A stretch of 62,026 bases of DNA, taken from UHGV virus genome UHGV-1382945. One strand, written 5' to 3'. A model generated the notes under the pieces. It was given only the letters and a program-made list of their open reading frames with translations. It ran no database searches and had not been told where the DNA came from. The stretch is from a virus. The position numbers and the translations under genes were made by a program. Positions 1 through 56,600 of the stretch are shown here, in pieces (within the stretch, counting starts at the first letter, position 1; each line of letters opens with the position of its first letter).

Positions 1-681
1 CACTGAAGGAGTAGCCTGATACGTTTGCAAAGAAGCACCCTTACGATAGTTAAGTGCCTGTGACTGACGAGACAGAGCAAGATCTTCAGCTTGACGAGAA
101 GCCTGAGTTCTACCCATAGCTTCAGACAGTGCCTGCTGAGAACCCATACGATTCATGTAGTTAGAGAAGGCACCAGAGCTAGCGTTGATACCAGCCATAC
201 CCATGGAACGCATGTCTTGCTCACGCTGTTGTGCATAGCCAGCAGCTACGTCAGCAGTAGCTTGATTCATAAGCCTGTCACGAATAATATCCTCACCCTC
301 AGTAAGCTTACGAATAACAGACTTCTCAGTATCTCTGTAAAGAGGATCAAGTTCTCGCTGTTGCTGGATGTCAGCAAGACCTCTGTCTACTGCGTACTGT
401 GCTTGTGCTTGACCTAGAGGTCTAAGCGTTTGAAGATCTTCCATACTATACTGAATATTCAAATCTTCAAGAGGCCAGTACTTTTCTTTCTGTCTCTGCC
501 AAGCTTCGGAAGCGTACTCGTCCTGTTTCTCGATAGAGCCAAACGCAAGGTCAGCATACTTTGACGCTTGGTTTGCTGATTTAATGCCGGAGTAAATGTC
601 GTACCCGGTAGCTGCAAGATTACCTACAGTACCAAGAGCACTCCATGTATCACCCCAAGACCAGTTATCAAAAAGTCCCAT
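1..681 (-). CDS. hypothetical virion/ejection protein, N-terminal 227 codons; ORF stays open to position 1; in frame with partial ORF 61886-62026 if contig is circular (combined 273 aa)
   Basis: ATG at 681-679 with RBS GGAAAATAAACA upstream on minus strand; no stop in frame down to position 1; Q/A/S-rich composition like neighbouring structural proteins. Confidence 0.55.
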   Translation of the reverse strand, partial: MGLFDNWSWGDTWSALGTVGNLAATGYDIYSGIKSANQASKYADLAFGSIEKQDEYASEAWQRQKEKYWPLEDLNIQYSMEDLQTLRPLGQAQAQYAVDRGLADIQQQRELDPLYRDTEKSVIRKLTEGEDIIRDRLMNQATADVAAGYAQQREQDMRSMGMAGINASSGAFSNYMNRMGSQQALSEAMGRTQASRQAEDLALSRQSQALNYRKGASLQTYQATPSV

Positions 682-13663: not shown

Positions 13664-15751
13664 TTAACTCTGAGGATACGCTTGTTCAGGCTGACTAATC
13701 AGAGACATGTCTTCACGAAGCTGTCTCAGACTATCGATCAAAGCCGCAGGGCTAACACCTTCAGACCGTGCAGTCTCAACCATATCGGTCATCCACTGCC
13801 GTTCTTCCTGAGCTTGCTTCTGCTCTTGCTGCTTCTGAACTTCAATCTCCTTGTCAGTGTACACCAAGTTGTCATCAGAAAGATCGAGGGCATCTGCGAT
13901 AGAACGAATAATGCTCGGACGCTTGACAGTGCCAAGGTCAACCTGATTGTTAGTGATCTGCGCAAAGTTAATCAGACTCTGTGCTCTGATCTCCTTAGCG
14001 ATAAGAGACGAAGTACCACGAGCTTGAACAGCATAGTCACCCTTGATATCAGAGTCACTATTGAACTTCATGTTCCAGTGATACATAGCAGAGATGAACG
14101 GCTTAGTGATGCCATCGTCAAAGTTCTTGACTTGGTCCTTGATCGTAATGTTTGCAGAACCCATCAACATAGACAGGCCAGAAGCAGTACGACCAGCAGC
14201 ACCAGAAGGTTCTCCCCACATCTGGCGAGGAATAGAAGTAACTTCATCCCCGTAGCTGCGGAAGAGTTCAATCATCCGTTCAAACTCAGTAGTATAACTG
14301 GGAAGCTGGAAGACACGAATAGCAGGGTTAGCAGCATCAGCTCCTTCACCTGTACGCATCCATACCTTAAACGGATAGACATCACGAGGATCTTCGTCTT
14401 CCGATATAAGGTCAAGGTTTACTTCGATCTGAGGACCAGCAGAGATAGCAGCGTTGTCCAGCATAGCTCTGAACGCACTGTTGATCAACTCCTGAACATC
14501 AGACATGATAGACGGAATACCTTCACCAAAGATAGAGGTTTCGTCTTTGTCATAATAGTAGAAGAAGTAAGGCCACTTAACGCCTTCCATAGGCATGAGA
14601 GACGCTTTAATGACGTGGTCACCAAGTACCCAAATGTTTGCAGCCAGTTCTACCTGACCCTGCATACGTTCAGGAATATCAACACCCACCTGATTCAGAT
14701 CATCAGCATCTACAAAACCCCAGAACTCAAGCACTTCATACTTCTTAGAGTGAGCAGCATCAGCAACACCGCTGTCGATTACATCACCCATAGAGGTCAG
14801 CTGGTTCTCAAAGTCCTTCTTCTGATAATCACCTTCAGGATTCTCAGCAACATAGGTAGAGATTAAATCTCCATTGAAGTCTGATCTCTTTCCGAGACCG
14901 ATGACATCGTGCTTATCCATCTTCCGTCGCTGAATGATGTATCTACATTCGGAGGGGCAAGTAGCTTCCATGTCCGGGTAGATATCCCATATGCGGACGT
15001 TTTCGATGAAGGGAGTGATGGAGTCATAATCACAGAGTATCCACTTCTCTTTGTCTCCATTCTTTTCCTTCTTATAGTACTGACGGTTTTCAGAGATAGA
15101 AACAAGAGGCCCTTTAAGAATACCAGTACCATACAGATTACCAGAATGCATAACATCACGCATAATCTCACGGTACTTCAACTCAGCAAGCTGGTCTTCG
15201 ATGACCTTAGACATCTTACCAGCTTGGTTCTTAGCTTCATCCTGCATAAGAACGTAGAGTTCTTCAGGGCTAATCTGCTTACCTTGGTCTTGAGAAACAA
15301 CTTCAAGGATAGCAGCTTCTTTCTTCTTGCTAAACTGCGGCAGTGGCGTAGGCTCAATACCCCAGTTCTTCTCTCCGTTCGCAGGGAACAGCAGGTCAGA
15401 CAGACGGCTGTCAACAGTCTTGACCTTAGTTCTCGTCATACGAACAAAAGCTTTACTACGAAGAGGGTCCATACGTTCAAGAACTTCAGGAGAGTAGATA
15501 CCTTTGTACTGACGAAGGGCGTTCAACCACTTCTCTTCAATAGTCTTACGTGCACTGTCCGATCGATCAAATGCTTCACGAACAAATGCAGCCAGACCTT
15601 GGGGCGTTTCAGGCGCACCTTCGGTATCTTCTGCGCCGGAATCTTCATCTACCTGCATGTCGTCAGAAACTTCTTTGAGAAAATCCTGCACGTCTTTGTC
15701 TTCGGCAGAGTCGATTACAGTTCCAGAACCGAAAAAATCTTTTTCAGTCAT
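13664..15751 (-). CDS. putative portal protein, 695 aa
   Basis: large ORF immediately downstream of large terminase, acidic C-terminus; positional inference. Confidence 0.55.
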   Translation of the reverse strand: MTEKDFFGSGTVIDSAEDKDVQDFLKEVSDDMQVDEDSGAEDTEGAPETPQGLAAFVREAFDRSDSARKTIEEKWLNALRQYKGIYSPEVLERMDPLRSKAFVRMTRTKVKTVDSRLSDLLFPANGEKNWGIEPTPLPQFSKKKEAAILEVVSQDQGKQISPEELYVLMQDEAKNQAGKMSKVIEDQLAELKYREIMRDVMHSGNLYGTGILKGPLVSISENRQYYKKEKNGDKEKWILCDYDSITPFIENVRIWDIYPDMEATCPSECRYIIQRRKMDKHDVIGLGKRSDFNGDLISTYVAENPEGDYQKKDFENQLTSMGDVIDSGVADAAHSKKYEVLEFWGFVDADDLNQVGVDIPERMQGQVELAANIWVLGDHVIKASLMPMEGVKWPYFFYYYDKDETSIFGEGIPSIMSDVQELINSAFRAMLDNAAISAGPQIEVNLDLISEDEDPRDVYPFKVWMRTGEGADAANPAIRVFQLPSYTTEFERMIELFRSYGDEVTSIPRQMWGEPSGAAGRTASGLSMLMGSANITIKDQVKNFDDGITKPFISAMYHWNMKFNSDSDIKGDYAVQARGTSSLIAKEIRAQSLINFAQITNNQVDLGTVKRPSIIRSIADALDLSDDNLVYTDKEIEVQKQQEQKQAQEERQWMTDMVETARSEGVSPAALIDSLRQLREDMSLISQPEQAYPQS

Positions 15752-15756
15752 GATTT

Positions 15757-17172
15757 TTAGTAGCCTCCAATCTGGCTAGCAGCACGATATTTACGTTGTG
15801 TATTAAACAAGAACTTCTTCTCTCGCTTATGCACGTACTCCATCATTGCGTACTGCAAGGCGTCATGAATGTGAGAGAATTCATTCTTGACAGGAGATGC
15901 TTTGTAGAGAACACCGTTAACAGTCTTAGACTCAGCGTACTTGTACTCAGACACAAAGCCTTTTCTTAGGGCTATGCACTGAGGACCAAGCTTGAACTTA
16001 CCCTTCAAACGAAGGAACTGAGCAACGGCTTCAAAGCGAGGAGTCCAATTGTTTGTCTTAGCTAACTTGACAGGAAGATTACATTCTTTCAGTATCTCCA
16101 AACCAGATTTAGCGTCGTTCATTGACCGCTGTGAAGTAGCAGGGTCGCACACAACTTTAAAGTTATTTACAATCCAAGGGTACTTAGATGTGATCTTAGG
16201 CCAAAGATGTTCTTCACAGAACTCTTTAAGCGAGCAGTTGTCCGTACAGATCTCATCAAATACAATAACTGTACCGTCTGGAGCTTGCTGTGTGAAAGCA
16301 GCAGAAGGAGTTAATCCTTGGTCCATTCCTATGACAACAGGCACACCACGAAGAGGAAGGACTTCTTCATCAACATGGTGGTCAAGGTCACTGTAATCCT
16401 TATAAACAGGCTTACCTCGTTTTACTTCACCATAGTTGTTAAGTACGTTGACGTTGATAAAGTCTTCGTCTGCACCCATACACATGGTTTCGTAGTAGTC
16501 CTTGTCAAGGTTGTCGAGGTTCTCTGCCTCAGGATTAAGGACATACTTACCTTCAACCTTAAGCATAGCCGGAGGTTGACGGTAGAAACTATGTCCGTCT
16601 GGCTTGTCTTCCTCTGCAAGGCGATATAACCAATGTTCGGTACTTACGGCGTTGTAGTCAAGTATGATGAATGGCCTGACTGGGCCACCATCTTTCATAG
16701 CAGGATAACGCCTAAAGCGTGTCTTGATAAGCTGGAAAGTACCTTCAGTAAGTTCAGACGCTTCGTTCAAGTGAGCAGAGGTCACTTCCAACGAACGAAG
16801 CTTTTCAGCAGATCTATCATCATCGACAGCGATGAATACGACTTCCATATCTACGGTCGTACCATCAGCTAACGGATACTTAATCTTGCCGATGATGGGG
16901 GTAGAATAAGTGATAGTGATCTTGTCTTTAAACCATGACAACCACGTTTTAATGGTGGTTGACTTTAGGGCCGGGTACGTTGCGCGGACAACAAGGTGTC
17001 TGCTGTGCCTGACGCCATGCTCGTCTGGTTTCTGACGCATAGCATTAAAGAACGCTTGAAAGATACAACCAGAGGACTTGCCAGATCCCACTGGCCCCAT
17101 CACGAACAGAAAAGGATTAGGGTCATGATGAATCTTTGCAAACGTGGGCAGGACTTGGTAGTTGATTTCCAT
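15757..17172 (-). CDS. terminase large subunit, 471 aa
   Basis: N-terminal Walker A FVMGPVGSGKSS; C-terminal nuclease-like acidic motifs (GMDQG, HIHDALQYAM). Confidence 0.85.
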   Translation of the reverse strand: MEINYQVLPTFAKIHHDPNPFLFVMGPVGSGKSSGCIFQAFFNAMRQKPDEHGVRHSRHLVVRATYPALKSTTIKTWLSWFKDKITITYSTPIIGKIKYPLADGTTVDMEVVFIAVDDDRSAEKLRSLEVTSAHLNEASELTEGTFQLIKTRFRRYPAMKDGGPVRPFIILDYNAVSTEHWLYRLAEEDKPDGHSFYRQPPAMLKVEGKYVLNPEAENLDNLDKDYYETMCMGADEDFINVNVLNNYGEVKRGKPVYKDYSDLDHHVDEEVLPLRGVPVVIGMDQGLTPSAAFTQQAPDGTVIVFDEICTDNCSLKEFCEEHLWPKITSKYPWIVNNFKVVCDPATSQRSMNDAKSGLEILKECNLPVKLAKTNNWTPRFEAVAQFLRLKGKFKLGPQCIALRKGFVSEYKYAESKTVNGVLYKASPVKNEFSHIHDALQYAMMEYVHKREKKFLFNTQRKYRAASQIGGY

Positions 17173-17531: not shown

Positions 17532-18240
17532 CTAAGTCAGAGCGGTCAAGCAGTGTAGCTATCTTCTCTGCGTACATCTTTAAAAGGAATTGGAAATCAG
17601 CAGAAGTTATGTCTTCGCGGAGCTTACAGAACTCTACGACAAGGAAGCCAAAGACATCTTGGTCGTCAGAGATAAGGGGAGCAAGAGCAAAGGACACAGC
17701 CTTATGTGACTTCAACATTGTGTATGTGGACATATCAAACTTACGCAGGCGTTCGATGTTCATAATCACTTTAGGTTCTGTACCGAAAGCAGCGTTGGTA
17801 AGATATGAGAAAGCAGACACAGGCAGGTTTAGGAAGTCAGCCTGTGCTGGTTTAAGGCCGGGACGAACAGCCTCGTGTGTGCAGGACATCTTTGCAAAGT
17901 CAATACCAGACAAGTTCTGACACCCGTTATGGAACTGAATAACTGCAATTCTGTCTGCGTTCAATTCAGCCTTAGCATGTTTAAGCTTGGTAAGGACACG
18001 CCTATTCATATCAATGAGCGAAGGAAAATACGAAGCAAACTTTTTCGTCTTACCAGCAGCTAAACGCCTAACGTAATCAGATAAGGTTGCACATTCATAA
18101 ATAATGAATGCAGTCCCTCCCAGCATTGCAAGTGATATATAGTCAGCGTCTTTTACTAAGCTTGACAGACCATTAATGATCCCTAGTAAAATTTGACTAT
18201 CCATAACTTTCTTTTGTTTTCCCTCTTGACAAAGTGTCAA
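17482..18240 (-). CDS. hypothetical protein, first gene of late operon, 252 aa
   Basis: ORF immediately downstream of minus-strand sigma70-like promoter at 18282-18309. Confidence 0.5.
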   Translation of the reverse strand: MTLCQEGKQKKVMDSQILLGIINGLSSLVKDADYISLAMLGGTAFIIYECATLSDYVRRLAAGKTKKFASYFPSLIDMNRRVLTKLKHAKAELNADRIAVIQFHNGCQNLSGIDFAKMSCTHEAVRPGLKPAQADFLNLPVSAFSYLTNAAFGTEPKVIMNIERLRKFDMSTYTMLKSHKAVSFALAPLISDDQDVFGFLVVEFCKLREDITSADFQFLLKMYAEKIATLLDRSDLGDLDEEKLYKAPSEEA

Positions 18241-18254
18241 TTAGTGATTATAGT
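18226..18254 (+). promoter_or_regulatory. sigma70-like promoter (TTGACA-17-TATAGT) for plus-strand gene 18349
   Basis: -35 TTGACA 18226-18231, 17-nt spacer, -10 TATAGT 18249-18254. Confidence 0.55.
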
Positions 18255-18348: not shown

Positions 18349-19242
18349 ATGTCGTCGACGCTGATAGAAAAAGACCGTAGGAAGTTAAAGTGGCGGAGGA
18401 ATCCCATACTGAATGAAGACACACCTGAACCTTACAAGATCCCTAACTGTAGGTGTCAGGTAGGTTTGTCAGAGTGTGAAGTAGAAGGACAGTGGGACAA
18501 AGGTCTGTACACAAAAGGTGACCTTGTTAACGATCTGAACATCTTCTTTAACTATCTGCCTGAAAGTGAAGTAAGCAGAATGGTTAACGTTATGCTCTGG
18601 TGTCTGTCTACCGGTTTAAAGAACAGAGGAGGTATCGACCTCAAAGACTTTGCAGTCATCACTGTTGAAGAGAAGACATATAGCAGACCCTTGACACAAG
18701 TAACACGTGACTGCTTTGGTGTGACTAGACGTGTGTCCCGTGCACCTAAGAAGAGGTACTTTGTCTTCAGAGAATATCCTCAGCTTAAGGCTGTAGTTGT
18801 ACCACGAACAACTGATTTCTTCCCCGGGCATGAACGTACATGGTTTACATGGAAAGTGTCTGCAACAAACCATCCGTACTACTACGCAAGACACTGGCGT
18901 AGAGGTGCTCTGTATATGCAACAAGTCTTTGACAAGACCTTTGAATATACAGGGTATACAGACGAGTACATAGAGATGGCACAGAGTAACATCATAGAAC
19001 CTTTTGGTACAGAACGTGAACACATGAATACGGTCTACCTTGGCTTTGAGGCACCACCTTATGTCAAGGCAGCTTACACAGATGAACTCATCAAGGTACC
19101 CCTTAAGTACGTAGCAAGCAAATACTTTACAAGTAACAAGGTCAAGTACGATTACATGTTTGGTAAGATAACCAAGGAAGAAGCAAGTAAGCATCTTTTA
19201 AGTCAACCAAGAAAGCTAGCTATAGACAAGAAAAATACCTAG
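18349..19242 (+). CDS. hypothetical early protein, 297 aa
   Basis: isolated ORF between divergent promoter and a strong stem-loop terminator; AT-rich codon usage. Confidence 0.6.
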   Translation: MSSTLIEKDRRKLKWRRNPILNEDTPEPYKIPNCRCQVGLSECEVEGQWDKGLYTKGDLVNDLNIFFNYLPESEVSRMVNVMLWCLSTGLKNRGGIDLKDFAVITVEEKTYSRPLTQVTRDCFGVTRRVSRAPKKRYFVFREYPQLKAVVVPRTTDFFPGHERTWFTWKVSATNHPYYYARHWRRGALYMQQVFDKTFEYTGYTDEYIEMAQSNIIEPFGTEREHMNTVYLGFEAPPYVKAAYTDELIKVPLKYVASKYFTSNKVKYDYMFGKITKEEASKHLLSQPRKLAIDKKNT

Positions 19243-19287
19243 ATCGCACCTCCAAGGCTACGCCTTTACGGTGCTCTAAACGCAACA

Positions 19288-19350
19288 AGCCCCCGGCTAC
19301 AACAGGAACTATGCAGTGCATGGTCAGGTGTAGTACGGGGGCTTTTCTTT
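19288..19350 (+). terminator. rho-independent terminator-like stem-loop
   Basis: AGCCCCCG(19288-19295)...CGGGGGCT(19336-19343) followed by TTTCTTTT. Confidence 0.5.
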
Positions 19351-19648
19351 TGGTCAGAACTTGATAGGGGCGCTCGGCCCTATTGACTACAAAGCGTAGC
19401 TTAGTTCTAATAAGTCGGAGGAGAAGGTCACAGGTCTTTAGATACTATTCTCCCATGTCCTAATCAACTCAAACTACCTAAGTAGTTCGCTCGCTTTGAG
19501 GCTCGCTCACAACCTAAAGAGAGCGTGTTCACATGAGAAGCAGATGTAGTGCTCAAGTACAAACACTTTGCATGTGAACTGAGACATAACTCAGACAATT
19601 AATCATCCAATCAATCACAGCAGCTAGCCTGCGAATCACTCCGTGATT

Positions 19649-19668
19649 TCATATTCATATGAATATGA
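19649..19668. repeat. perfect 20-bp palindrome TCATATTCATATGAATATGA
   Basis: read directly; preceded by inverted repeat AATCAC-TCC-GTGATT. Confidence 0.9.
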
Positions 19669-19703
19669 TAATCAGTTTTTTTCAAAAGTCAAGGGGTTTG
19701 AGC

Positions 19704-19730
19704 AAAAAAAAGTTAAAAAAAAGTTAAAAA
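19704..19730. repeat. phased A-tracts (A8GTT A8GTT A5)
   Basis: AAAAAAAAGTTAAAAAAAAGTTAAAAA. Confidence 0.9.
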
Positions 19731-19761
19731 CTTTAGGCAGCCAAGAGGTAGGGCCCGGGCC

Positions 19762-19798
19762 GGTTACTAGTGGTTACTCCTGCCTACTGTTGGTTACG
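19762..19798. repeat. four 10-bp-phased iteron-like repeats xGGTTACTxx (third copy degenerate)
   Basis: cGGTTACTag tGGTTACTcc tGccTACTgt tGGTTACgta; a ~25-bp related copy TAGTGTTACTCCTCGTAGCTGTTGG recurs at 20034-20058. Confidence 0.7.
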
Positions 19799-20521
19799 TA
19801 TGTTGTGAGATGAGAAGGATCATAGTGAGTATACCTCCTAGACCTGTTCTGAACTTATAGAACTATGAGATATAGAAACGATTCTGATGAAGTCATTCAG
19901 CTCCTAAAAACTTACGTGTGAAGTCTGTGTCATCTGTACCCCCGTGCCTCCGCTGTGTCCCACGGGTAGGGTATGACCCTCTCCCCCTTGTGAAAGAAAG
20001 CACAGTGTGACTCCTAAGGTTTTTAGTGTTACTCCTCGTAGCTGTTGGCTAGGTTATAGTCTAGCTTGTGAGCTGACTTGCAAGTGATACTAAAGCATCA
20101 AACCTTGCCATCAATGGTAATCGTTATCAATAAGCAACAGTACTGGTTACTACTAGCATTCAAACGTTTCTAAAAGCTAACTAAATCAACTACCTATAGT
20201 AAGCATGGTCTAAAAGAGTAAATGATTACACATGTTTACATACAGGTTCAACTTATTGTACTCATGCGTTCCAAACGTACAAATGTTTGAACCATGTTCT
20301 AAGTACCTGTAGTTCTTATGGTTCCGCACTATGTGCGTGCGCCATAAGCTCCACAAGCACCTGCCGCGCGCATGTTGGGTACAAAAAGTTGAACTTACCC
20401 GCGTAGCGGGGTCTAATTATTTCAACTACTTACGTTTTGGCACACGGCTTGCTATATAAGAGACATCAGCGGGGGCACAGCTCCGCATGATAAGTTCTTT
20501 TGAAAAGTTGTTGAAAAGTGC

Positions 20522-20550
20522 TTGACATAGCCGAAAAGCTCATGTAGAGT
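20522..20550 (+). promoter_or_regulatory. sigma70-like promoter TTGACA-17-TAGAGT followed by short hairpin (20564-20577) and T-run
   Basis: -35 20522-20527, -10 20545-20550; upstream direct repeat TTGAAAAGT x2. Confidence 0.5.
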
Positions 20551-21603
20551 GCATTTCAACGAAAGGGCAAATGCCCTTAGTTCTTTCAAAAGCTCATAGC
20601 GCGTTTTGTTAAGTATCTAGTCTTTTGGGAAAACCGGAAGTAGGCGGACGTTACATGCCTTCGGTATGCTTGCTTGCGAGCGTTGCGACGCTTTATAGAG
20701 TAGTCGACAGCCGGAAGAACGAGACACAAAAGAGACGCAAAAAAGTACTTGACAAGCGCAACGACTTATGAGAGAACACTTTCAACGGAATAGAGGAACC
20801 TTCCCCAATAGAGGTCACTCTGAACGTTCGGAGAACGTCAGAGGCAGTACCATGACCGCCATTAAGGTCGTCGTGGGAACGAGAACGCAGCAGCCTGAAA
20901 ACGTATGCTTGCGGGGAAAGGTGAACAACTTGAGAGTCTCCGGATGGAGACAAGGGGCATGGAGTTGTCCCGATAGGTATCAGCTTATGATATCTTCCTG
21001 CACTAGCTGCACACAAGCACAAGGCGCAGCTATGGCGATATCCGAAAGGTGAGCTATGCATGGAGCTTGCAGGTCATGCGTTCTCTACCGTAACACTGGT
21101 TACAGTAGACTTGCACAGTAGCAGGGTGCCACAGGTGCGTTGCTTGTGTAAGTAGTAGTTCAGTAGGTAGACACGTACAGAAAAGCCGAGGCTTGCTTAT
21201 ATACTCCTTTTATCCTCGGGTGCGACGTATAAGCAAGAGGACGGAACAATCCGACTGGGGGCCTTGTGCGCAGGTGCAAGGTAGGTCGGGGGAAAGTCCT
21301 ACTTACAGCAAGCCTATAGTTTACCGATAAACTGTAAACGGCGTTGCAGATTTACAACCTAGCAATGCGATAAGTCGGCTCAAAGGGTAGACTGAAAGTA
21401 ACCTTAGAAAAGTTACAGCCGTAGAGTATTGGCGTTAAAAGGATGCGTTCCATCCTGCGTTGGAGACAGTACAACGGCTATAAATATTAGGTAAAGTGTT
21501 TTGAGTCTGTAAACAGTTTGACAGTTGCAGGGGAATGGGGTGCCTTGGGTGCGTTATGCCCTTGCAACCAGTCAAATTGTTTCACAACTTTAAGGAGAAC
21601 ACT

Positions 21604-21768
21604 ATGTTAAAGTATCTTTCTCAACGTTATGTCAATATGCTCATGAAAGGCAACCATGCCATAGACTTTTACGCATGGGCAGGTCACGTAGCTTATAAAA
21701 CTCAACAACTTAAAACTGCCGTTGAAGAACAGCAGGCGCAAGCTGTGGAGAAATGTCATGCACGATAA
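21604..21768 (+). CDS. hypothetical early protein, 54 aa
   Basis: RBS AAGGAGA before ATG 21604; first ORF after ORF-poor region. Confidence 0.5.
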   Translation: MLKYLSQRYVNMLMKGNHAIDFYAWAGHVAYKTQQLKTAVEEQQAQAVEKCHAR

Positions 21769-22330
21769 GCCGCAAGGTTATAAGAGACAGGCTAATGCCC
21801 TGAATATCTGTAGGAATCAGGGCCTGACTAACCTCTATCAAACGGAAGGGGAAGACCTGCGCTATAGTCCTGTTTGGAACAAGCGCGGGGAATGTGTAGG
21901 CTATAGAAACCAGCATGGCCAGTTTCTGGATGTAACAACTCTGCTATGGTCTGATTTTGCTGGTACTATTAAGCGTTACGCTGATTTGACACCAGCAGAA
22001 AGGAAGGTATTCTTCCCTGTTCTCCCCGGTCTGGCGGATGTGCCTTTCCTGTACGCTGAATATGGACAAAACAAGTCCGTAACTGGCAAGCATGGCAAGC
22101 ACATCAACATCCGCAAGGTACGTACAAGCGAACGCCCACGCGCTAAGTATCGTACTACAAACTTGGGCACAGGCGAGGCTATGGACAAGCAGGACGGGTA
22201 CGCTTGTGCCCTCGTGACTCTGGATAAGCCTCAAAAGGTTCGGCGTGTTAATCGACATGCTAAGGTCGTCGTGCATACGGAAGATGACTACATCATGGCT
22301 ACAACTCGGTCGTCCCGGCGTTTCCGCTAA
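21758..22330 (+). CDS. hypothetical early protein, ~190 aa
   Basis: ATG overlapping upstream stop (ATGcacgaTAA); basic protein. Confidence 0.55.
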   Translation: MHDKPQGYKRQANALNICRNQGLTNLYQTEGEDLRYSPVWNKRGECVGYRNQHGQFLDVTTLLWSDFAGTIKRYADLTPAERKVFFPVLPGLADVPFLYAEYGQNKSVTGKHGKHINIRKVRTSERPRAKYRTTNLGTGEAMDKQDGYACALVTLDKPQKVRRVNRHAKVVVHTEDDYIMATTRSSRRFR

Positions 22331-26694: not shown

Positions 26695-27076
26695 CGATGA
26701 GATTGTCAAGTTCTTTGAAGAACTGGTTGAGTTCTATGGTCATGGTAGCCCGCAGGCCCGCATCATTGAACGCGTCAAACGCAAGCTGGAAGTCGTGCCT
26801 ATCGGTGATAAGTACGGACGACTGTGCCCCACGTGCAAGTGTCCTGTATGTGGCAAGACCAGATCGCAAGCTGCTGCCCTTGCTCGTGAACGTCAGCGCC
26901 GGGGTAGGGACAAGTATCTTACCCATAAATATCCCGGCATGGGAATGGAACTGTCGCAACCTGATGACGACATTCCGGTGAAGTCTGTTGGCTTCTCTGT
27001 ACTTGACATCGGTAAAGCTGAGGCCGATGCTATTGCCTACATCATAGGCACTGAACCTTCCAAGCGGGGAGAGTAA
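26663..27076 (+). CDS. hypothetical zinc-ribbon protein, 137 aa
   Basis: RBS AAGGAGA before ATG 26663; CPTCKCPVCG motif. Confidence 0.5.
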   Translation: MGTPVGSATLDDEIVKFFEELVEFYGHGSPQARIIERVKRKLEVVPIGDKYGRLCPTCKCPVCGKTRSQAAALARERQRRGRDKYLTHKYPGMGMELSQPDDDIPVKSVGFSVLDIGKAEADAIAYIIGTEPSKRGE

Positions 27077-27142
27077 CATCTGTTACTGTACCATATAAAC
27101 AGACAACGAACAGCAACCATCAAACCATTAGGAGTACTTACT

Positions 27143-28183
27143 ATGTCCATGCGCAACATCTTCAAGATCGTCCTCGACTCCAACGCTGAAGCTGGCAAGC
27201 TCGTGACCGCCCGTATCGCTGGCAAGGCTGCGAAGGAAGCTCTCTTTGCCAATCCCACCGTGCTTCAAGGTGTGCTCACGTCCTCCGCTGTGCTGACCGC
27301 TGCTTCCCTCGCTGACCCGGACACCGCCCACGGAAAAGCCCTGCACTACCTCGGCCTTGGCATGACGATGGACGCCGCCGATGAACTCCTGCGTGTGTGT
27401 GATGAGGCGGGTGTGTTCCAGATGCGTGGCACTGCGGAAGACAGCGCGACCGCTGACATGCAGGCCGTGGTCTCCAAGACCTTCGACTCCAAGCCTTTCC
27501 TCCAGATGCTCGGTGTTCTGCCCAAGGCTGACGGTACCAAGGAAACCAAGCCCCGGTTCTCCACACAGGCCAAGCCCGCTGGTGTCACCGCCAACGCCAT
27601 CGAGAATCCCGCCAAGGCCGAAGTCAAGGAAGAAGCCACCGATAAGCCCCTGTCTGTGAAGGTCGGCCCCGAGGTGGCTACGCCTGTTATCCTGCCCAAC
27701 AAGGATGGCAAGGTTGAAAAGCCCGTGCTCCGCTGCGCCTTCGAAGGATGCGGCAGCGAACTTCGCAAGCCTGCCGAACAGAAGCCCTTCCACCTGCCCA
27801 CCGACAAGGAAACGCAGAAGTACATCACCGATGATGAACGCAAGCTCGAAGGCAGCTACCTCTGCCGGTTCCATCGTGACGTGGTGACCAAGTCCATCCA
27901 GAAGCGCAAGAACGACGACCGCATGAACAAGGTTCGTGAACAGCGCCTCGATGAGGCCACGAAAGAACTGACCAACGTGGAAGCCGAACTGCGTGAAAGT
28001 GAAAGGGCCCTCGCCGCCAGCGAAAAGACCATCACCAAGATCACCGACCCCATCATCAAGTCCGGCGCTGAGAAGGCCCTGACGGAAAAGCGCAACAGCA
28101 TCCAGAACCTGCGCAAGCGCAGCATCGCTCTTCAGAACAAGTGCAAGCAGATCTCTGACGAGCTCGCCCGCAGCGGCAAGTAA
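27143..28183 (+). CDS. hypothetical protein, 346 aa, GC-rich codon usage, C-terminal coiled coil
   Basis: RBS TAGGAGT; strong GC3 bias; CAFEGCGS...CRFH Cys/His pair. Confidence 0.6.
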   Translation: MSMRNIFKIVLDSNAEAGKLVTARIAGKAAKEALFANPTVLQGVLTSSAVLTAASLADPDTAHGKALHYLGLGMTMDAADELLRVCDEAGVFQMRGTAEDSATADMQAVVSKTFDSKPFLQMLGVLPKADGTKETKPRFSTQAKPAGVTANAIENPAKAEVKEEATDKPLSVKVGPEVATPVILPNKDGKVEKPVLRCAFEGCGSELRKPAEQKPFHLPTDKETQKYITDDERKLEGSYLCRFHRDVVTKSIQKRKNDDRMNKVREQRLDEATKELTNVEAELRESERALAASEKTITKITDPIIKSGAEKALTEKRNSIQNLRKRSIALQNKCKQISDELARSGK

Positions 28184-28213
28184 CACACTGAAACTCATGG
28201 AGGTATGTAATAC

Positions 28214-28714
28214 ATGAACAAAAACAATGAGTTCATCATCGACGTGGAAGAAGCGCACGAGCCCATGGGTTTCGGTGCGAAGGTTATCGGTCTTGCCAAG
28301 AGCGTGACCAGTTCCCCCACCATGCACCGTCAGATTGACAAGACCAAGGAAGCCGGCGTGGTTATCACCAAGCTTGCTGCTGGTCGTCTGGTTCTGAACA
28401 ACGTGACCGATGTGATTGCGTCCGGCCTGCCTTGGGGCATGGGTGGATTCATCAAGTCCAATCCGCTGAACGAGGCTCTGTTCAAGTTCAGCTTGGCGCA
28501 GGCTCTGTCCATCATGGGTGGTGCGTTCGTCTCGAATGTTGGTGAAGACGACCCGAAAGCCAAGTACTTCATGACGGCCATCGATGCGGCCACTCTGGCA
28601 TCGGTTGACGCTCTGCGTGAAGCCTCGGGTATTGAAGAGTTCATCATGTCCAAAATTCTGACCAAGGATGTGATGGACAAAATCAAGCCCCTCGTTAACT
28701 CCCATCCCATGTAA
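28214..28714 (+). CDS. hypothetical protein, 166 aa, GC-rich
   Basis: RBS GGAGGT before ATG; followed by terminator. Confidence 0.6.
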   Translation: MNKNNEFIIDVEEAHEPMGFGAKVIGLAKSVTSSPTMHRQIDKTKEAGVVITKLAAGRLVLNNVTDVIASGLPWGMGGFIKSNPLNEALFKFSLAQALSIMGGAFVSNVGEDDPKAKYFMTAIDAATLASVDALREASGIEEFIMSKILTKDVMDKIKPLVNSHPM

Positions 28715-28722
28715 CCCATAAC

Positions 28723-28756
28723 AAGCAGGGCCGGGGCAACTCGGCCTTGTTTGGAA
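28723..28756 (+). terminator. rho-independent terminator
   Basis: stem 28723-28733 / 28742-28752 (GGCCG/CGGCC core) followed by TTGTTT. Confidence 0.5.
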
Positions 28757-29159
28757 CTAGGTTGCAAGTGAAAGGAGTAAGGCAGACACTGTCGTGTACA
28801 AGAGAGCCAACGCAACTGGTAGGTTGCAGCCTCCGCACAAGGTCCGCTCCACCGAACATGTAGACTTAGGGTGGCTATTGAAGTGTTGGTTAGGTAAACG
28901 CTATGCAAACTTGTGTATCAGAGTGAGGTGTAGAATCCTCGATGGCTGCTGATACTGTGCTCAATGTCGGCACATCAAAAGCAAACTACGGATACACAAC
29001 TTGTGTCTGGGTCGAACACAAAGCTAGTGGATGACGCAAGTAACATGAGTACCGGCTAGCCATGCCGCGAAGTTGTTACTGAATATGGCAGGTAAGATAG
29101 TCTAGCAATGTGCATCATGTCCTTCATAAGATCAACTTACTGACTACAAGGAGCCAGTC

Positions 29160-39461: not shown

Positions 39462-41426
39462 ATGCCTTACGCGGTACTCGACATAGAATGTTCTAAAGCA
39501 CCGAAGCACATGCCTTGGACAGTAGGTTCCTTCTTGTGCTCTGTTGGAATTGAACGTCAGGACGGTACCTCAACCGTGTGGTTCTTCAATCCGAATAGCA
39601 GGCCACACGAAGAACTTCTTGCTGAAATCCAACAAGAGATTGACAAAGTTGATGTTTTGGTTGGACACAACATTAAGTTCGACTTGAACTGGTTGAAGTG
39701 GATTGGTTTGAATGTCAAGAACAAACCAGTCTGGTGTACGATGATAGCTGACTATCTCATAAATGGTCAGGGTAGACTTGAGTACAGTCTTAATGCTGTT
39801 GCAGAACGCTATGACCTAGGGCGTAAGCTCGATGCTATGGCTATGTACTGGCAAGCTGGATACGAGACGGATGAGATTCCGTTGGAGATTCATGAAGACT
39901 ATCTCAAGCAGGACATACATCTTACACATGCCGTGTTCAAGAAGCAAGTCCCACTCGTTGAGCGTGCAGGACTTGACAAGATAACGGAACTTTCTTTCCG
40001 TATAACCCAGATTCTTTCTGATGTAGAAGTATCTGGTGCAGCCTTCGACAAAGAAGAAGCCACTGCTTACTGTGATCAAACACGTGATCAAGTTAAAGCA
40101 ATGGACAAGACGCTTGTCGAACTGGCTGGCATTGACTTTACTCCCTCCTCTGCTCCACAACTCAGTGCTGTTTTGTATGGTGGTTATCTAAAGAAGGAAG
40201 TTCCTGAACTTGTAGCTCGTCAGCTGAAGAGCGGTAAGTTTAAGATCACCACACGTAAGACTAAGATCGAGATTCCTATCAAGGGACTTGGCTTCAAAGT
40301 TCCAGAAGGCTGTGTATCCAAAAAGACTGGCTTGCCTTTGACCGATAAGAATACTCTTGATCTATTAAAGTCTAACGACGAATGCTCTGAGTCCTTCCTT
40401 CAAACACTACGAGATCAGAAGAAGCTGAACAAAGTAGTGTCCACAATTGCTGGTTCCAAAGAAGAAAAAGAGACAGGCCTGATTGCTGTCATCGGTAAAG
40501 ATGGCAGACTTCATCCTTCCTTTAACCAGTGCGTAACACGTACAGGTAGACTCTCTTCTTCAAATCCGAACGGGCAAAACTTTCCCCGTAGTGGTACCAG
40601 CCCCATCAAAACATTCTTTAAAAGTACACAAGGGGTTATAATAAACATTGACTTAGCTCAGATTGAATGGCGTATAGCTGCTGAGTTAAGCCGTGATCCT
40701 GTGATGCTTCGTGAGTTGAACGAAGGTCTGGACATTCATGCTGATAATGCTTTACGTTTCTTCGGTGCAGACAAGTATCCGAGAGACTCGAAAGAGTTTA
40801 AGAAACTTCGCACTACTGCAAAGACAATGTCATTCCGTCTTTTATACGGTGGTTCAGCCTCTGGGTTCTACAAAGATCAACGGATGCCTGACTACAGTCT
40901 AAAGAAGTGGAAAGAGATTGTAGCAGCTTTCTACCAAAAGTATCAAGGACTTAAGAAGTGGCAAGACACAAACATGCAGATTGCCAAGTCACGTGGGTAT
41001 CTTCGTAATCCATCTGGACGTGTCCTTACGTTTGACAACATGATGGGATACGATGGTGTAGAAACTGTTGACGGTAAGCAGGTGTCAAACTATCCAGTAC
41101 AGTCTGGGTCGACTGACGTTATGTACTTGCTTATGTGGAAGTTGCTTACACGTACACAAGAGTTTAAACTTCTTGCTAAGTTTATTCTTCAAGTGCACGA
41201 CTCTATGGTATTTGACGCTCCTATTGAAGAAGCAGAGACGTTATGTCGTGAAGCTATCAAGCTGATGCATAGCCTTCCTCAGCTTGCTAAAGAATACTTT
41301 GGTTGGGATATTGCGGCTCCCTTGACAGGAGACTGTGAGATAGGGTATGATTATGGTAACATGAAAGAGATCAAGGAAGAAGATATGGATAAGATCTTCG
41401 CCGATCTTCCTGCCTTCTTGTCTTGA
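39462..41426 (+). CDS. family A DNA polymerase with 3'-5' exonuclease domain, 654 aa
   Basis: Exo I VLDIECS, Exo II VGHNIKFDLNWL; Pol motif A RTGRLSSSNPNGQNFPR, motif B KTMSFRLLYGGS, motif C QVHDSMVFD. Confidence 0.9.
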   Translation: MPYAVLDIECSKAPKHMPWTVGSFLCSVGIERQDGTSTVWFFNPNSRPHEELLAEIQQEIDKVDVLVGHNIKFDLNWLKWIGLNVKNKPVWCTMIADYLINGQGRLEYSLNAVAERYDLGRKLDAMAMYWQAGYETDEIPLEIHEDYLKQDIHLTHAVFKKQVPLVERAGLDKITELSFRITQILSDVEVSGAAFDKEEATAYCDQTRDQVKAMDKTLVELAGIDFTPSSAPQLSAVLYGGYLKKEVPELVARQLKSGKFKITTRKTKIEIPIKGLGFKVPEGCVSKKTGLPLTDKNTLDLLKSNDECSESFLQTLRDQKKLNKVVSTIAGSKEEKETGLIAVIGKDGRLHPSFNQCVTRTGRLSSSNPNGQNFPRSGTSPIKTFFKSTQGVIINIDLAQIEWRIAAELSRDPVMLRELNEGLDIHADNALRFFGADKYPRDSKEFKKLRTTAKTMSFRLLYGGSASGFYKDQRMPDYSLKKWKEIVAAFYQKYQGLKKWQDTNMQIAKSRGYLRNPSGRVLTFDNMMGYDGVETVDGKQVSNYPVQSGSTDVMYLLMWKLLTRTQEFKLLAKFILQVHDSMVFDAPIEEAETLCREAIKLMHSLPQLAKEYFGWDIAAPLTGDCEIGYDYGNMKEIKEEDMDKIFADLPAFLS

Positions 41427-53694: not shown

Positions 53695-56600
53695 TTAATC
53701 CCTATAGTCAAGACCTGACTGCTTAGCTACACGAGTAAGTTCCTTCATCAAGAATTCCTTGCGCTTCTGCAGCCGTTCCTTTTCTTCGTAGTACTTAGCA
53801 CCCGAAGACCTGTTGTTCTTTTCATTTAACTTCTCAAGCTTACGCACACTGTTCAAGCGAGCGTTGATAGAATCATACCTACCCTTGAGCTGCTGAATAG
53901 TTCTGTTCTTATTCATGATTGCAGTACGTTCGTCAGGAGAAAGAGTATCGTCCTTCCTCGCAAGATCAAGTTCGTTCAAGCCAATCTGAATCTTATTACG
54001 AACCTTACTGTACTCATTGAGCGTATCACCGTAGCCTACCTTACCAAAGAAAGAACTGGCGAGGGGTACGTTCTTCAGCTCAACAGGAGCACCAGTAACA
54101 GGAGAAACCATTATGTTAAGAGCTTGTGTAATAACTCTGCCAAGACCACCCATGTACGATTCAGTAAGATGCTGAATGGTTTCAGGAGACACGTCAATCC
54201 AACCCTTCTCAACCTTAGACCCGAACGTCCAAGAGTTCAGTGTCTCTGCCACAACACGACACCACATAGGATTAGTACCCCAGTACTTCTGACTGTTAGG
54301 TACTTCACCCTTAAAGCTGTGCGTGCTGTCAGGCATAAGGGCATAGCCAAAGCTGTTCTGATTGGCTACTACTTCACTGATAGGACGTAAGATAGTAGGC
54401 ATGAAGTTCAACAAGGAAGCTCCACCAACAGGGTTGAAATTATCAAAGGAAGCACCAAAGATTTTAGCAGCAGCAGAGGAAGGTTTGGTGCGTCCGCTGA
54501 TTACACCTTCTATTGCATTAGAAGCTACCCAGAAGATATTGTAACCATAAGGCAAGGGGATCTTTACATAGCCGCCATCACCAAAGGGTGCAGGTATGAT
54601 AAGGTTACTGTCCTTGATGTAGTCAGGAATCTTATCGTACTTACTCACACCGTCATCGTCATCACCCATAAGCCATCTGCACAACAAAGCATGAGGAATA
54701 CCACAAGCTATTGAGTAAGCCATGTAAGCAGCAGTTCTTTTTGCGTTGTTGGCAAAGCTATCTCCACGCCTCCAGAGGTTACGCAGAATACGGACGTTAC
54801 CACCGATGTTAGCAGAGGAGAATGCCCACAGACTGTTAAAGAACGGAGCCCATGAACCCTTACGAGTAAAGTTAACCGTGATCTCCAGAGCTTCGTTAGC
54901 TGCACGTTGATGTGCAGTTTCCATCATCTCTTGCATCTGTTGAGCAGACCAACCATTACGCTTAGCTTCCTGAGCAATATGGTTGTCAAACTCCTGTGTC
55001 AGAGCAACAAACACAGAGAACCGGGTAGCGTTTTCAGACACGTCAGAAATAGTGTCCAGATACTTGAGAGCCTTATCAAGAGTCTCCTTAAACTTACCCT
55101 TCTGCTTTGACAGTTCACGTACATCCTTGTACATAGTCTTGTAGTCATTAGCAAGGAACATACGAGTATGCCCGCCAGACTCAGTAAACTTCTTGTACAT
55201 CTCCTTGAGGTACGCTGCATCCTTACCGCCATATTCCTTACCGTTCAGTTCTGCCCAGAGGAACTTGACCATGCGCATAGACATAGCATCCTTAATGATA
55301 CGCTGACGAATGTTGTTCTCTTTACCAAGCAGGTTATTGGCCTGTGCTTCAGAGATCACATTACCTACGTTAAGGATAGCAGTCTGAATATCACGAGGAT
55401 AGTTCTTGATAGCAAATACAGGGTTGAACGTAGTGTACAAAGCAGCAAACTTCTGAGTTATCTTACGAATGTTGTTAATGATTGCGCCTGTTTCAAGGTT
55501 GTTCTCGTTACGCAAAGCAGCAGCAAGTGCTACGTCCTTGATAGCAATACGAACACGGTTACCCTTCTCATCAATTACGTTGATGAACTTGTAGTCTTTA
55601 CCTTCAAGACTATGTGACTTCCTCACATAGGCAAGAGTACCGTCTCCCTTCTCAGACATACGGAAGTATGGCTGTCCCTTCTCATTCTTATCCGTAGCGA
55701 TTTCCCACAGCTCTTCGTTAGGAGCTTCTCGAACGAGGTTGAGCAGACGACGAGACACATCGTTCTTCTCACCGATGTTGATAGTATCCATGATCTGTAA
55801 CATCAGGTGTGTAGAAGGACTTTCTGCAAGACCTTCCCGCCCCTTCGCCTTCTTCAACAACTCCCGACCACCCATAGAAATACCAGCCTTAGATCTCTTA
55901 TGCGCATAGTCAGGGTCAAGGTCGTCAACGAATTCTTCCCAGTTCTTCAACGGGACATAGTGCTTATAGGTAGCACGCAGCTTGTCAGTAAGAGTCTTAG
56001 GTACAATGTGATACTTATCCAGCAAGTCCAGATGGTATCTACCAAGCTGGTCAAACTGTGCAGCTATCTCGTTCATACCCGGCACATCAGAGTACTTATC
56101 AATAATAGCCTGCGCCTGCTGGTCAGTAAGACCAGAAGGAGACTCTAGCTTATTCTTACCACGATACCGCCTGTTGACTTCAGCGTTACGTTCCAGCGCA
56201 TGTCGAGCCAGAAGGAACTCATCAAGAGCAGACCAAATAGCATTCACTCTGTCCTGTTCAGTAACCTTACGACCAGCCTTGCGCAGAGCATCAAGAGCTT
56301 CCTTCACAGCAGGAATGTCAAGCTTACCAATCTTTTCACAAAGAGGGGCAAACTTCTGGTTCATGATATCAGTACGCTGTTCGTTAATCCTGTTCACCAT
56401 ACCGGTCAAGTGACGGTAGATGTTCGTAGCAGGAGTGATGATATTCTTACCGATCGTTTCCTTGATGTACCTCTGCACAACCTGAACACGACGATACTTG
56501 TCGTACATACCATCTGCAAGTCTTTCAAAGCCAGTGTGTGAAACAAGCTTACCATCCAAGCCTACGGACTTGCCGATGTTTCTTATACGAGCAATAAGAC

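Follow-up and report, generated by a model that had tools for sequence, protein, structure and literature searches.

What occupies positions 19243-21603 of the 62,026-bp stretch analyzed here (UHGV virus genome UHGV-1382945; the whole stretch is called the window below), where some 2.4 kb of an otherwise densely coding genome appear to be empty? The window is essentially the complete genome of an uncultured tailed phage, and human-gut metagenomes have yielded its close relatives as contigs of 59-63 kb. An earlier description made without database searches (hereafter, the sequence-only reading) had taken the gap for a candidate replication origin or a regulatory RNA hub, with a partition site or a decoy/sRNA locus as further options, pointing to a palindrome, A-tracts, phased repeats, and promoters. 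Comparison with the relatives shows that the gap is conserved and non-coding and that, downstream of a promoter (P1), its right half carries the determinant of a multi-domain RNA of about 1,025 nucleotides (nt), the helices of which are maintained by compensatory base changes. In the explanation that accounts best for these observations, to which we assign as a whole a probability of roughly 0.8, the genome is that of a podophage-like phage of ~62 kb from the human gut, and the gap is its non-coding control region.

A conserved gap without protein-coding genes

Genes of the phage run leftward from ~18.2 kb and rightward from 18.35 kb, with structural and packaging functions in the leftward block and early and replication functions in the rightward one. 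The gap is located just inside the rightward block, after one isolated gene encoding a protein of 297 amino acids (aa). The absence of a convincing open reading frame (ORF) over 2.3 kb, as originally reported, was borne out: none of at least 130 aa is present in 19243-21603, and the longest, on the - strand, comprises 126 codons from stop to stop (122 aa from ATG). The size of the gap is kept at 2,238-2,373 bp in all relatives (designated here by L numbers), and gene callers run independently annotate nothing over 2.27-2.35 kb of L022, L024, L025, and L027. Other apparent gaps in the window hold ordinary ORFs of 55-99 aa, and the 2.4-kb gap is unique.

Reassignment of the stop codons TAG, TGA, or TAA, taken singly, opens no long frame in the gap; the best one has 180 codons, and the frames are scattered over both strands. 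Among seven aligned genomes, no ORF of at least 70 aa is conserved in position or strand. Additionally, all 40 ORFs of at least 20 aa were translated, compared with 15 relatives by tblastn, and subjected to a codon-position test. The only frames intact in most genomes are 20-46 aa long and are found on both strands of a 3' segment that is 93-100% identical (the near-invariant domain D3 described below). The variable columns of these mini-ORFs are distributed over the three codon positions as, for example, 16/18/11 and 9/6/6, with no excess at the third position. The small conserved protein genes that the sequence-only reading had named as a finding that would refute it did not emerge from this survey of 40 ORFs and 15 relatives.

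Identity along the gap forms a mosaic. It is ~72-78% in 19755-20790, with islands of 85-94%, whereas the segment 20793-20992 is variable and missing from some genomes, and 21193-21592 is 83-100% identical, at or above the level of the neighboring coding DNA (84-94%, blastn). Among deposited and cultured phages, blastn gave no match to the gap, and the large terminase (TerL) is at most 37% identical to that of any deposited phage.

The structured RNA and its probable promoter

The elements of the right half of the gap are as follows.

20494-20505, + strand: first of two boxA-like motifs, GTTCTTTTGAAA, ahead of P1; conserved within the main clade
20522-20550, + strand: P1, a sigma70-type promoter with an A-rich upstream tract, a -35 element TTGACA, a 17-nt spacer, and a -10 element TAGAGT, followed by the conserved TTTCAACG
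20557-21582, + strand: the structured RNA in its entirety (about 1,025 nt), counted from the start predicted for P1 down to the base of the terminal hairpin
20580-20591, + strand: second boxA-like motif, GTTCTTTCAAAA, ~25 nt into the P1 transcript, forming the outer 5' strand of the helix that closes D1
20582-20775, + strand: D1, closed by a long-range helix of ~25 bp and containing three internal hairpins
20749-20777, + strand: 'P2', a putative second promoter, with CTTGACA at 20749
20785-21177, + strand: D2, a modular and variable array of hairpins
21183-21510, + strand: D3, the most conserved part, with multi-way junctions
21511-21582, + strand: terminal hairpin of 29 bp (11 + 18; helices 15-16), with 7 covarying pairs

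In sliding windows, covariation appears on the + strand from ~20540 onward, with little of it upstream of ~20520 (6 of 58 pairs in 20120-20520). The global consensus fold of 20552-21603 in 16 genomes comprises 216 pairs, 80 of which show compensatory double changes. For D3, RNAalifold applied to the 16-genome alignment yields 115 pairs, a count that includes the terminal hairpin, and 38 of them covary. In this fold 98.5% of the cells are paired, compared with 32-40% when the partners are slid by 1-3 columns, and the 38 covarying pairs are to be set against 13 +/- 2.4 in shuffles (0 of 500 reach the observed number) and 2-6 in the slid versions. The same controls distinguish D2, with 63 pairs, 92.8% of cells paired versus 33-41% after sliding, and 38 covarying pairs versus 19.4 in shuffles (0/500), as well as D1, with 47 pairs, 97.5% versus 36-44%, and 10 covarying pairs versus 6.4 (reached in one of 500 shuffles).

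The strand is defined as well. The minimum free energy of the 3' block is -147.8 kcal/mol on the + strand (z = -4.25) versus -113.3 kcal/mol on the - strand (z = -1.71), and the pairs of D3 include 238 G.U cells versus 7 A.C cells, with eight pairs being G.U in all 16 sequences. The excess of G.U over A.C identifies the folded molecule as the + strand, and as RNA rather than duplex DNA. That the locus specifies a real structured RNA is, in our judgment, nearly certain. With a length above 500 nt, several domains supported by covariation, and no coding potential, it has the descriptive characteristics of a large ornate non-coding RNA (ncRNA). The part of the sequence-only reading that spoke of a regulatory RNA hub or small-RNA locus is thus supported by the ~1-kb covarying RNA downstream of P1 and not by the features then listed, among which the secondary structure at 20557-21582 did not figure.

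The domains differ markedly in their variability. D3 contains the invariant single-stranded motifs CCGAUAAAC, GCUCAAAGGGUA, the loop CCUUAGAAAAG, UUGGAGACA, and CUAUAAAUA, and its segment 21393-21442 is 100% identical in seven genomes. One strand of D3, GGCUUGCUUAUA (21190-21201), has two mutually exclusive partners, 21228-21237 or 21307-21315, both of which are 96-97% paired across the genomes and both of which are compensated in the L021/L027 lineage; a conformational switch in D3 is possible, the support for it coming from that lineage alone. In D2, the hairpin-rich 5' portion of ~200 nt (20790-20990) is cleanly absent from L003, L008, L025, L027, and L013, and different or additional hairpins are found in L005 and L026. 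The RNA thus gains and loses modules in this domain. The terminal hairpin is not followed by a U-run and is therefore not a canonical terminator.

When the D3 core was turned into a covariance model (167 positions, 48 pairs), the model recognized a single copy in the window, and each clade member gave a full-length match of 160-211 bits. The model also matches over its full length, with 34.7 bits and E ~3e-6, the distant relative L018, in which the neighboring protein is only 41% identical. In L018 essentially every helix is changed in sequence yet still pairs, and the unpaired CCGAUAAAC, GCUCAAAGGGUA, UUGGAGACA, and AUA are kept, a pattern that, as far as sequence comparison can indicate, marks a fold that is functional and makes specific contacts. 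In a wider search of viral, genome, and metagenome collections with exact and degenerate DNA patterns, every match outside the clade of ~62-kb gut phages failed the covariance model, even with filters off, which marks these matches as chance ones. The RNA family is confined to this phage lineage. The Rfam scan proposed as a check of the locus returned no Rfam 15 family (GOLLD, ROOL, and OLE included) at the gathering threshold in the whole window, and at E <= 10 only four chance-level matches, to eukaryotic lncRNA models and to RT-11, were obtained over 19000-21900.

Promoter-like sites are not enriched in the single sequence (11 versus 7.1 +/- 2.9 in shuffles), so the significance of such features had to be settled by comparison with the relatives. 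Both P1 and a leftward promoter described below draw their support from conservation in 11-16 genomes. The promoter originally placed at 20522 (TTGACA-17-TAGAGT) was confirmed at 20522-20550 in a form conserved in 16 genomes: the -35 element is invariant, the -10 element is TAGAG(T) in 15 of them (L021 differs), and the spacer varies freely. In L018 an identical TTGACA-17-TAGAGT promoter is accompanied by three further tandem TTGAC(A/T) ones; the four sites, each with a -10 element starting with T-A at 17-bp spacing, lie at 40-400 (+ strand) of that contig, upstream of its copy of the RNA, in an array that resembles the early regions of T7-type phages. The pattern of conservation in P1 is the classic one for a real promoter, and its sequence is that of a sigma70-type promoter, with a start predicted near 20557. 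The mini-hairpin seen after P1 is present in the window; it is an insertion found in only three of 16 genomes and is longer in L019 and L024.

The second promoter, initially proposed at ~20749, fared less well. Its -35 element is the consensus TTGACA, but the hexamer at 17-bp spacing (GAGAAC) is not a recognizable -10 element. The sequence of 'P2' is also the 3' strand of the helix closing D1 and contains covarying pairs (A4 columns 162:333 and 163:332); in L007 the pair AAGAGCU/AGCUCUU replaces GAGUAC/GUACUU in this helix. The conservation of 'P2' is therefore attributable to its pairing in D1, and promoter activity is uncertain. Since the closing helix spans 'P2', transcripts starting at P1 evidently read through it. 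At the other end, the foot of the RNA lies 10 nt short of AAGGAG (21592-21597), the Shine-Dalgarno sequence for the first early ORF (ATG at 21604). As no terminator intervenes, the RNA is physically the 5' leader of the early operon.

Possible roles of the RNA

We propose that host RNA polymerase would transcribe the RNA from P1, perhaps with extra input from a sigma54-like site upstream and from 'P2', and that this would be the first RNA made after DNA entry. Its transcription from P1 as the leader of the early operon is considered probable. The transcript would consist of four parts, namely D1, the variable D2, the highly conserved D3, and the terminal hairpin, while remaining physically an early-operon leader. 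The D3 core would be the functional module, with its invariant junction and loop nucleotides contacting a partner that might be a protein, a ligand, or another copy of the RNA, and the boxA-like motifs near the 5' end could help the polymerase to cross 1 kb of untranslated RNA without Rho termination. The outcome would be a stable ncRNA or ribonucleoprotein (RNP), derived from the leader and comparable in kind to GOLLD and ROOL. Action of such an RNA or RNP in trans is put forward tentatively, at somewhat less than even odds. It is favored over a pure cis leader because the fold exceeds known antitermination and riboswitch elements and because the gene downstream is not constant.

A purely cis-acting early leader would serve antitermination, the stability or processing of the mRNA, or the sensing of a ligand or factor for the first gene, leaving no role for the free RNA. 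Such a role agrees with the placement of the RNA, which fills the interval from the early promoter to the first ribosome-binding site without a terminator, as well as with the boxA-like motifs near the 5' end and with the two exclusive partners of GGCUUGCUUAUA, which could constitute a switch; precedents are lambda nut, the put RNA of HK022, and the immunity RNAs that P4 and P1 derive from leaders. However, known cis-acting antitermination elements and riboswitches are 50-250 nt long, a size that a four-domain fold of 1 kb far exceeds, the invariant loops and multi-way junctions are retained in the distant relative, and the evidence for the alternative helix comes from a single lineage. In turn, the gene directly downstream differs between genomes, which argues against a gene-specific sensor. 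We regard the cis-acting leader as only slightly less probable than action in trans.

The first ORF after the RNA (54 aa, 21604-21768, + strand) is found only in some genomes (the window, L007, and L008), and in the others a conserved MHDKPQGYK protein (window positions 21758-22330) comes first. Conservation is thus higher for the RNA than for the gene that follows it. AlphaFold2 models of both proteins flanking the gap are poor (predicted local distance difference test scores of 43.6 and 44.4), and a profile search of the PDB with the downstream one was empty.

We can also speculate that the RNA represents a new class of giant functional phage RNA that acts alone as the first "gene product" of the phage, as an RNA-only device for host takeover or anti-defense, although this appears unlikely. 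Such an RNA would be synthesized from the DNA that enters first, within seconds of injection and ahead of any phage protein, and could act by self-assembly into a higher-order RNA particle, by catalysis, or by capture of a host factor such as the ribosome, RNA polymerase or Nus factors, an RNase, or a defense protein.

Several observations weigh against the proposal of a P1-driven, leader-derived stable RNA or RNP. The sequences represent one phage lineage and a single distant relative (L018), and therefore many of the compensatory changes are inherited from few events, with L021 and L027 contributing many of them. The start, end, processing, and abundance of the RNA, as well as its stability, antitermination, and function in trans, are all inferred, and the present data do not separate a role as a cis leader from one in trans. 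No partner has been linked to the RNA, and the flanking proteins show no informative homology beyond a weak HU/IHF-like signal in the upstream one. The boxA-like motif is missing from L018, and one of its copies is predicted to be paired in D1; its resemblance to the boxA of Gram-positive rrn operons is presumed and remains a lead. The literature confirms only that GTTCTTTGAAAACT is a conserved sequence of the 16S-23S spacer. The sigma54-like site, finally, is the sole match in 62 kb, yet 18 of 100 shuffles give at least one. What speaks for the boxA-like motifs is that GTTCTTTNRAAA is found at just two places in the window, 20494 and 20580, both of them in the gap, and that one of 100 shuffles gives two or more occurrences.

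To our knowledge, well-supported structured ncRNAs longer than ~500 nt are rare in bacteria and phages, with few classes known beyond rRNA, RNase P RNA, tmRNA, and self-splicing introns. OLE, GOLLD, ROOL, and raiA each opened a new line of RNA biology, and the RNA described here is an added candidate of similar or greater size. The likeness is closest to GOLLD and ROOL, which are also encoded by phages, measure from hundreds of nt to ~1 kb, and have a multi-domain fold defined by covariation and a function yet to be established (PMC12286853); in GOLLD, as here, a conserved 3' region is combined with a variable 5' region (PMC12286853). The RNA nevertheless matches neither Rfam model even at E <= 10, and its length of ~1,025 nt compares with >800 nt for GOLLD and ~660 nt for ROOL. 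GOLLD and ROOL are commonly located near tRNA islands, whereas ARAGORN finds no tRNA gene in the 62 kb of the window, and the RNA described here occupies the 5' leader of the early operon, downstream of early promoters of the host type. GOLLD and ROOL self-assemble into homo-oligomeric, RNA-only nanocages (PMC12286853).

As at this locus, strong promoters are followed by a long transcript that is not translated in the leaders that carry boxA and recruit Nus factors in rRNA operons, lambda nut, and CRISPR arrays (PMC7665894, PMC3177189). Such RNAs have to be protected from Rho, and a U-rich boxA recruits NusB/NusE (PMC7665894); the U-rich GTTCTTT(C/T)(A/G)AAA near the 5' end of the RNA would follow the same logic. 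However, this motif departs from the E. coli consensus, and boxA leaders are devoid of a conserved multi-junction domain of 400 nt. The HK022 put RNA and the P4 CI and P1 c4 immunity RNAs are functional RNAs located in early-operon leaders directly downstream of an early promoter, and are thus alike in position, but they are ~70-100 nt long, with one or two stem-loops, about ten times smaller than the RNA described here, for which complementary target sites were neither looked for nor encountered. The early regions of T7-like podophages have tandem host-type promoters and an untranslated leader of several hundred nt before the first early gene. These features and the position at the start of the rightward early block are shared with them, although we do not know of a conserved multi-domain fold in the T7 leader, and no phage RNA polymerase was found here among ~35 ORFs scanned. 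The RNA is rated as a new family, as judged against Rfam 15, within the known kind of large structured phage ncRNAs, with an unusual placement as an early leader; parts of it may figure among the 10,006 candidate motifs in a catalogue of phage candidate structured RNAs (csRNAs; Fremin et al. 2023, PMC10690425).

The boundaries, strand, and conserved core of the RNA are clean enough for direct synthesis and study, and the phage lineage recurs in many human-gut metagenomes. The predicted first-transcribed position in an early operon, unlike that of GOLLD and ROOL, raises the question of whether the first product that some phages make on infection is a large functional RNA and not a protein. For genome annotation, the "empty" stretch of 2.4 kb is neither junk nor a misassembly; it corresponds to a conserved RNA gene and a dense DNA control region.

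The left half of the gap and the rest of the genome

The left half (19243-20520) contains the following DNA-level elements.

19287-19353, + strand: intrinsic terminator of the upstream 297-aa gene, a long GC-rich hairpin (19287-19344) followed by UUUUCUUUU, 45 nt past the stop codon
19443-19648: variable, indel-rich stretch, mostly absent from eight of 11 relatives (gap fraction 0.83 over 19493-19592)
19649-19668: perfect 20-bp palindrome TCATATTCATATGAATATGA, preceded by an AATCAC/GTGATT inverted repeat
19692-19665, - strand: leftward sigma70-type promoter, with a -35 element TTGACT (19692-19687), a 16-nt spacer, and a -10 element TATCAT (19670-19665)
19703-19735: phased A-tracts with an 11-bp period, directly upstream of the -35 element of the leftward promoter, semi-conserved
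19762-19800: four units phased at 10 bp, with the consensus GGTnACTAGT (AGCTACTCCT GACTACTGTT GGTTACGTAT), conserved in 11 of 11 genomes
19893-20012: conserved C/G-rich block between the two repeat copies, identity 0.82-0.91
20028-20058: second copy of a direct repeat of 27-30 bp (GTTACTCCT..CTGTTGGyTAgGT)
20245-20293: conserved inverted repeats GGTTCAAC..GTAC / GTAC..TTTGAACC, identity 0.88-0.94
20378-20394: conserved inverted repeat GTACAAAAAGTTGAAC, identity 0.88-0.94
20438-20452, + strand: sigma54-like TGGCAC-N5-TTGC, a perfect -24/-12 consensus, invariant in 15 genomes

The terminator-like hairpin initially delimited as 19288-19350 proved to be a strong, conserved Rho-independent terminator, with a folding energy of -35.1 kcal/mol (z = -3.7) and an identity of 0.82-0.89 to the relatives; its region also appears terminator-like on the - strand in a scan, and the terminator may be bidirectional. 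The palindrome, in turn, is present together with its second inverted repeat, but it is shared by only three of 11 genomes (the window, L001, and L025). It overlaps the -10 element and start region of the leftward promoter, which in most relatives has the form TTGACA-17-TATACT and the hexamers of which are invariant or nearly so in 11 genomes, while the surrounding sequence varies. The start of this promoter is predicted near 19658, reading toward the terminator (19353-19287) across 220-370 variable nt. The A8GTT A8GTT A5 tract was found as described at 19704-19730, and the phased A-tracts look like an UP element or bent DNA.

The four repeats reported at 19762-19798 do have the 10-bp spacing; only three of them, however, contain GGTTAC, the fourth being GCCTAC. 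They form a candidate protein-binding array. The related copy noted farther on is real, being 74% identical and located at 20028-20054, and several relatives have extra GGTAGGTTA-type copies after it. The contigs of fragmentary relatives (L002, L004, L013, L014, L019, L020, L021, L023, and L026) often start or stop at ~19880-20410, a zone in which the copy number of the repeats varies; these breaks probably reflect failure of assembly due to strain heterogeneity. Between the repeat copies, the C/G-rich block folds better on the - strand (-23.5) than on the + strand (-10.5), and part of it (19925-20010) was considered as a - strand small RNA, the covariation being too weak for such an assignment (3 of 26 pairs, covariation term -0.25). 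The inverted repeats at 20245-20394 (GTTCAAC..GTAC), which stand 45-190 bp upstream of the sigma54-like motif, are candidate regulator-binding sites, and TGGCAC-N5-TTGC is a candidate sigma54 promoter only.

Always encoded on the left side of the gap, the 297-aa protein (18349-19242, + strand) shows, around residues 52-125, a weak resemblance to the DNA-bending proteins HU and IHF. The profile match to HU in the PDB has E = 0.066, and PF00216 is detected in three of seven homologues, with a best E of 0.0015, below the Pfam threshold. Taken together, the signals of the left half fit a regulatory nucleoprotein region, which would be compatible with an origin.

Whether a replication origin is indeed present, especially in 19650-20400, is a separate matter. 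In such an origin the phased repeats would be the binding sites of an initiator, melting of the DNA would be aided by the A-tracts together with bending of the HU/IHF type, and transcription from promoters close by would activate replication, or prime it, for the phage's own DnaB-like helicase, primase-like protein, and family A DNA polymerase (PolA). The conserved repeats phased at 10 bp, with a second copy of 27-30 bp and a copy number that varies as in iterons, are suggestive in this respect, as are the phased A-tracts, the weak HU/IHF-like domain in the adjacent 297-aa protein, and the possession by the phage of its own replication proteins (the helicase and PolA are clear, the primase is a weak match below threshold). 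The site is also located at the divergence of the two transcription blocks, with the minimum of the cumulative GC skew between 15 and 20 kb; the genes switch orientation at the same place, which deprives this turn of independent weight. Conversely, the palindrome is not conserved, the A-tracts stand exactly upstream of a conserved leftward promoter, which is a simpler explanation for them, no initiator protein was identified, and RNA structure, not DNA sites, accounts for the part of the gap that is largest and best conserved. An origin in the left half thus seems rather unlikely. It can be reconciled with the control-region explanation where that half is concerned, and the right half is not contested between the two.

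A ColE1-type primer RNA, in which the transcript would form an RNA-DNA hybrid at a downstream origin and be processed to prime the leading strand for PolA, would unite a large structured untranslated transcript with the adjacent candidate origin features and the family A polymerase, and T7-type origins depend on tandem promoters. This is nonetheless very improbable: neither a G-rich/C-rich segment suited to hybrid formation nor an RNase H-type site can be made out at the 3' end, the RNA continues straight into a translated gene, and no conserved antisense regulator of the RNA I type is seen, with the - strand folding poorly. Less probable still is a structure in single-stranded DNA, serving as a single-strand initiation or packaging signal; compensatory helices would persist in such a fold as well, but the 238 G.U (G.T) wobble cells and the eight all-G.U pairs fit RNA much better, the fold is on the sense strand directly downstream of a conserved promoter, and the replication proteins are of the helicase-primase-PolA type and not of the rolling-circle type. 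Hidden coding through stop recoding (known for TAG or TGA from some gut phages), through numerous small genes, or in the form of a decayed pseudogene, with the structure being incidental, has in its favor only a few 20-46-aa ORFs intact in most relatives and is effectively refuted by the 180-codon limit and double-stranded scatter of recoded frames, by mini-ORFs on both strands of a 93-100% identical segment without codon-position bias, by the compensatory nature of helix substitutions, and by conservation exceeding that of the flanking genes, which a pseudogene would not show.

The main landmarks of the genome outside the gap are the following.

13664-15751, - strand: SU10-type portal
15757-17172, - strand: large terminase
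39462-41426: PolA

The phage also encodes a DnaB-like helicase, DNA ligase, T7-type endonuclease I, and ThyX, with a weak, below-threshold DNAG_N match for a primase. Among the ~35 ORFs scanned, no phage RNA polymerase, sigma factor, or sigma54 activator (bacterial enhancer-binding protein) was detected. The ends of the window show no terminal overlap. No prophage copy of the RNA was found in the wider family search, and for this reason no host is assigned; Shine-Dalgarno sites and TTGACA promoters argue against a host among the Bacteroidota, which appears unlikely on these sequence grounds.

Two near-consensus sigma70-type promoters, 18226-18254 (+ strand, TTGACA-17-TATAGT) and 18309-18282 (- strand, TTGACA-16-TATACT), are arranged back to back and divergently between the leftward packaging genes and the 297-aa gene. 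An ORF of 2,328 aa (53695-60681, - strand) contains an LPD38 "large polyvalent protein" domain near its C terminus and probably encodes an injected or internal virion protein. In L024 (1-614, - strand), the large terminase is called as 802 aa with a faint LAGLIDADG match, versus 471 aa in the window and the other relatives, and the extra length suggests an intein or the insertion of a homing endonuclease. A GC-rich island at 27000-29000 (0.53-0.58 versus ~0.46 elsewhere) has a long ORF on the + strand (27143-28183) and another on the - strand (27128-28705), of which gene calls in the relatives favor the former.

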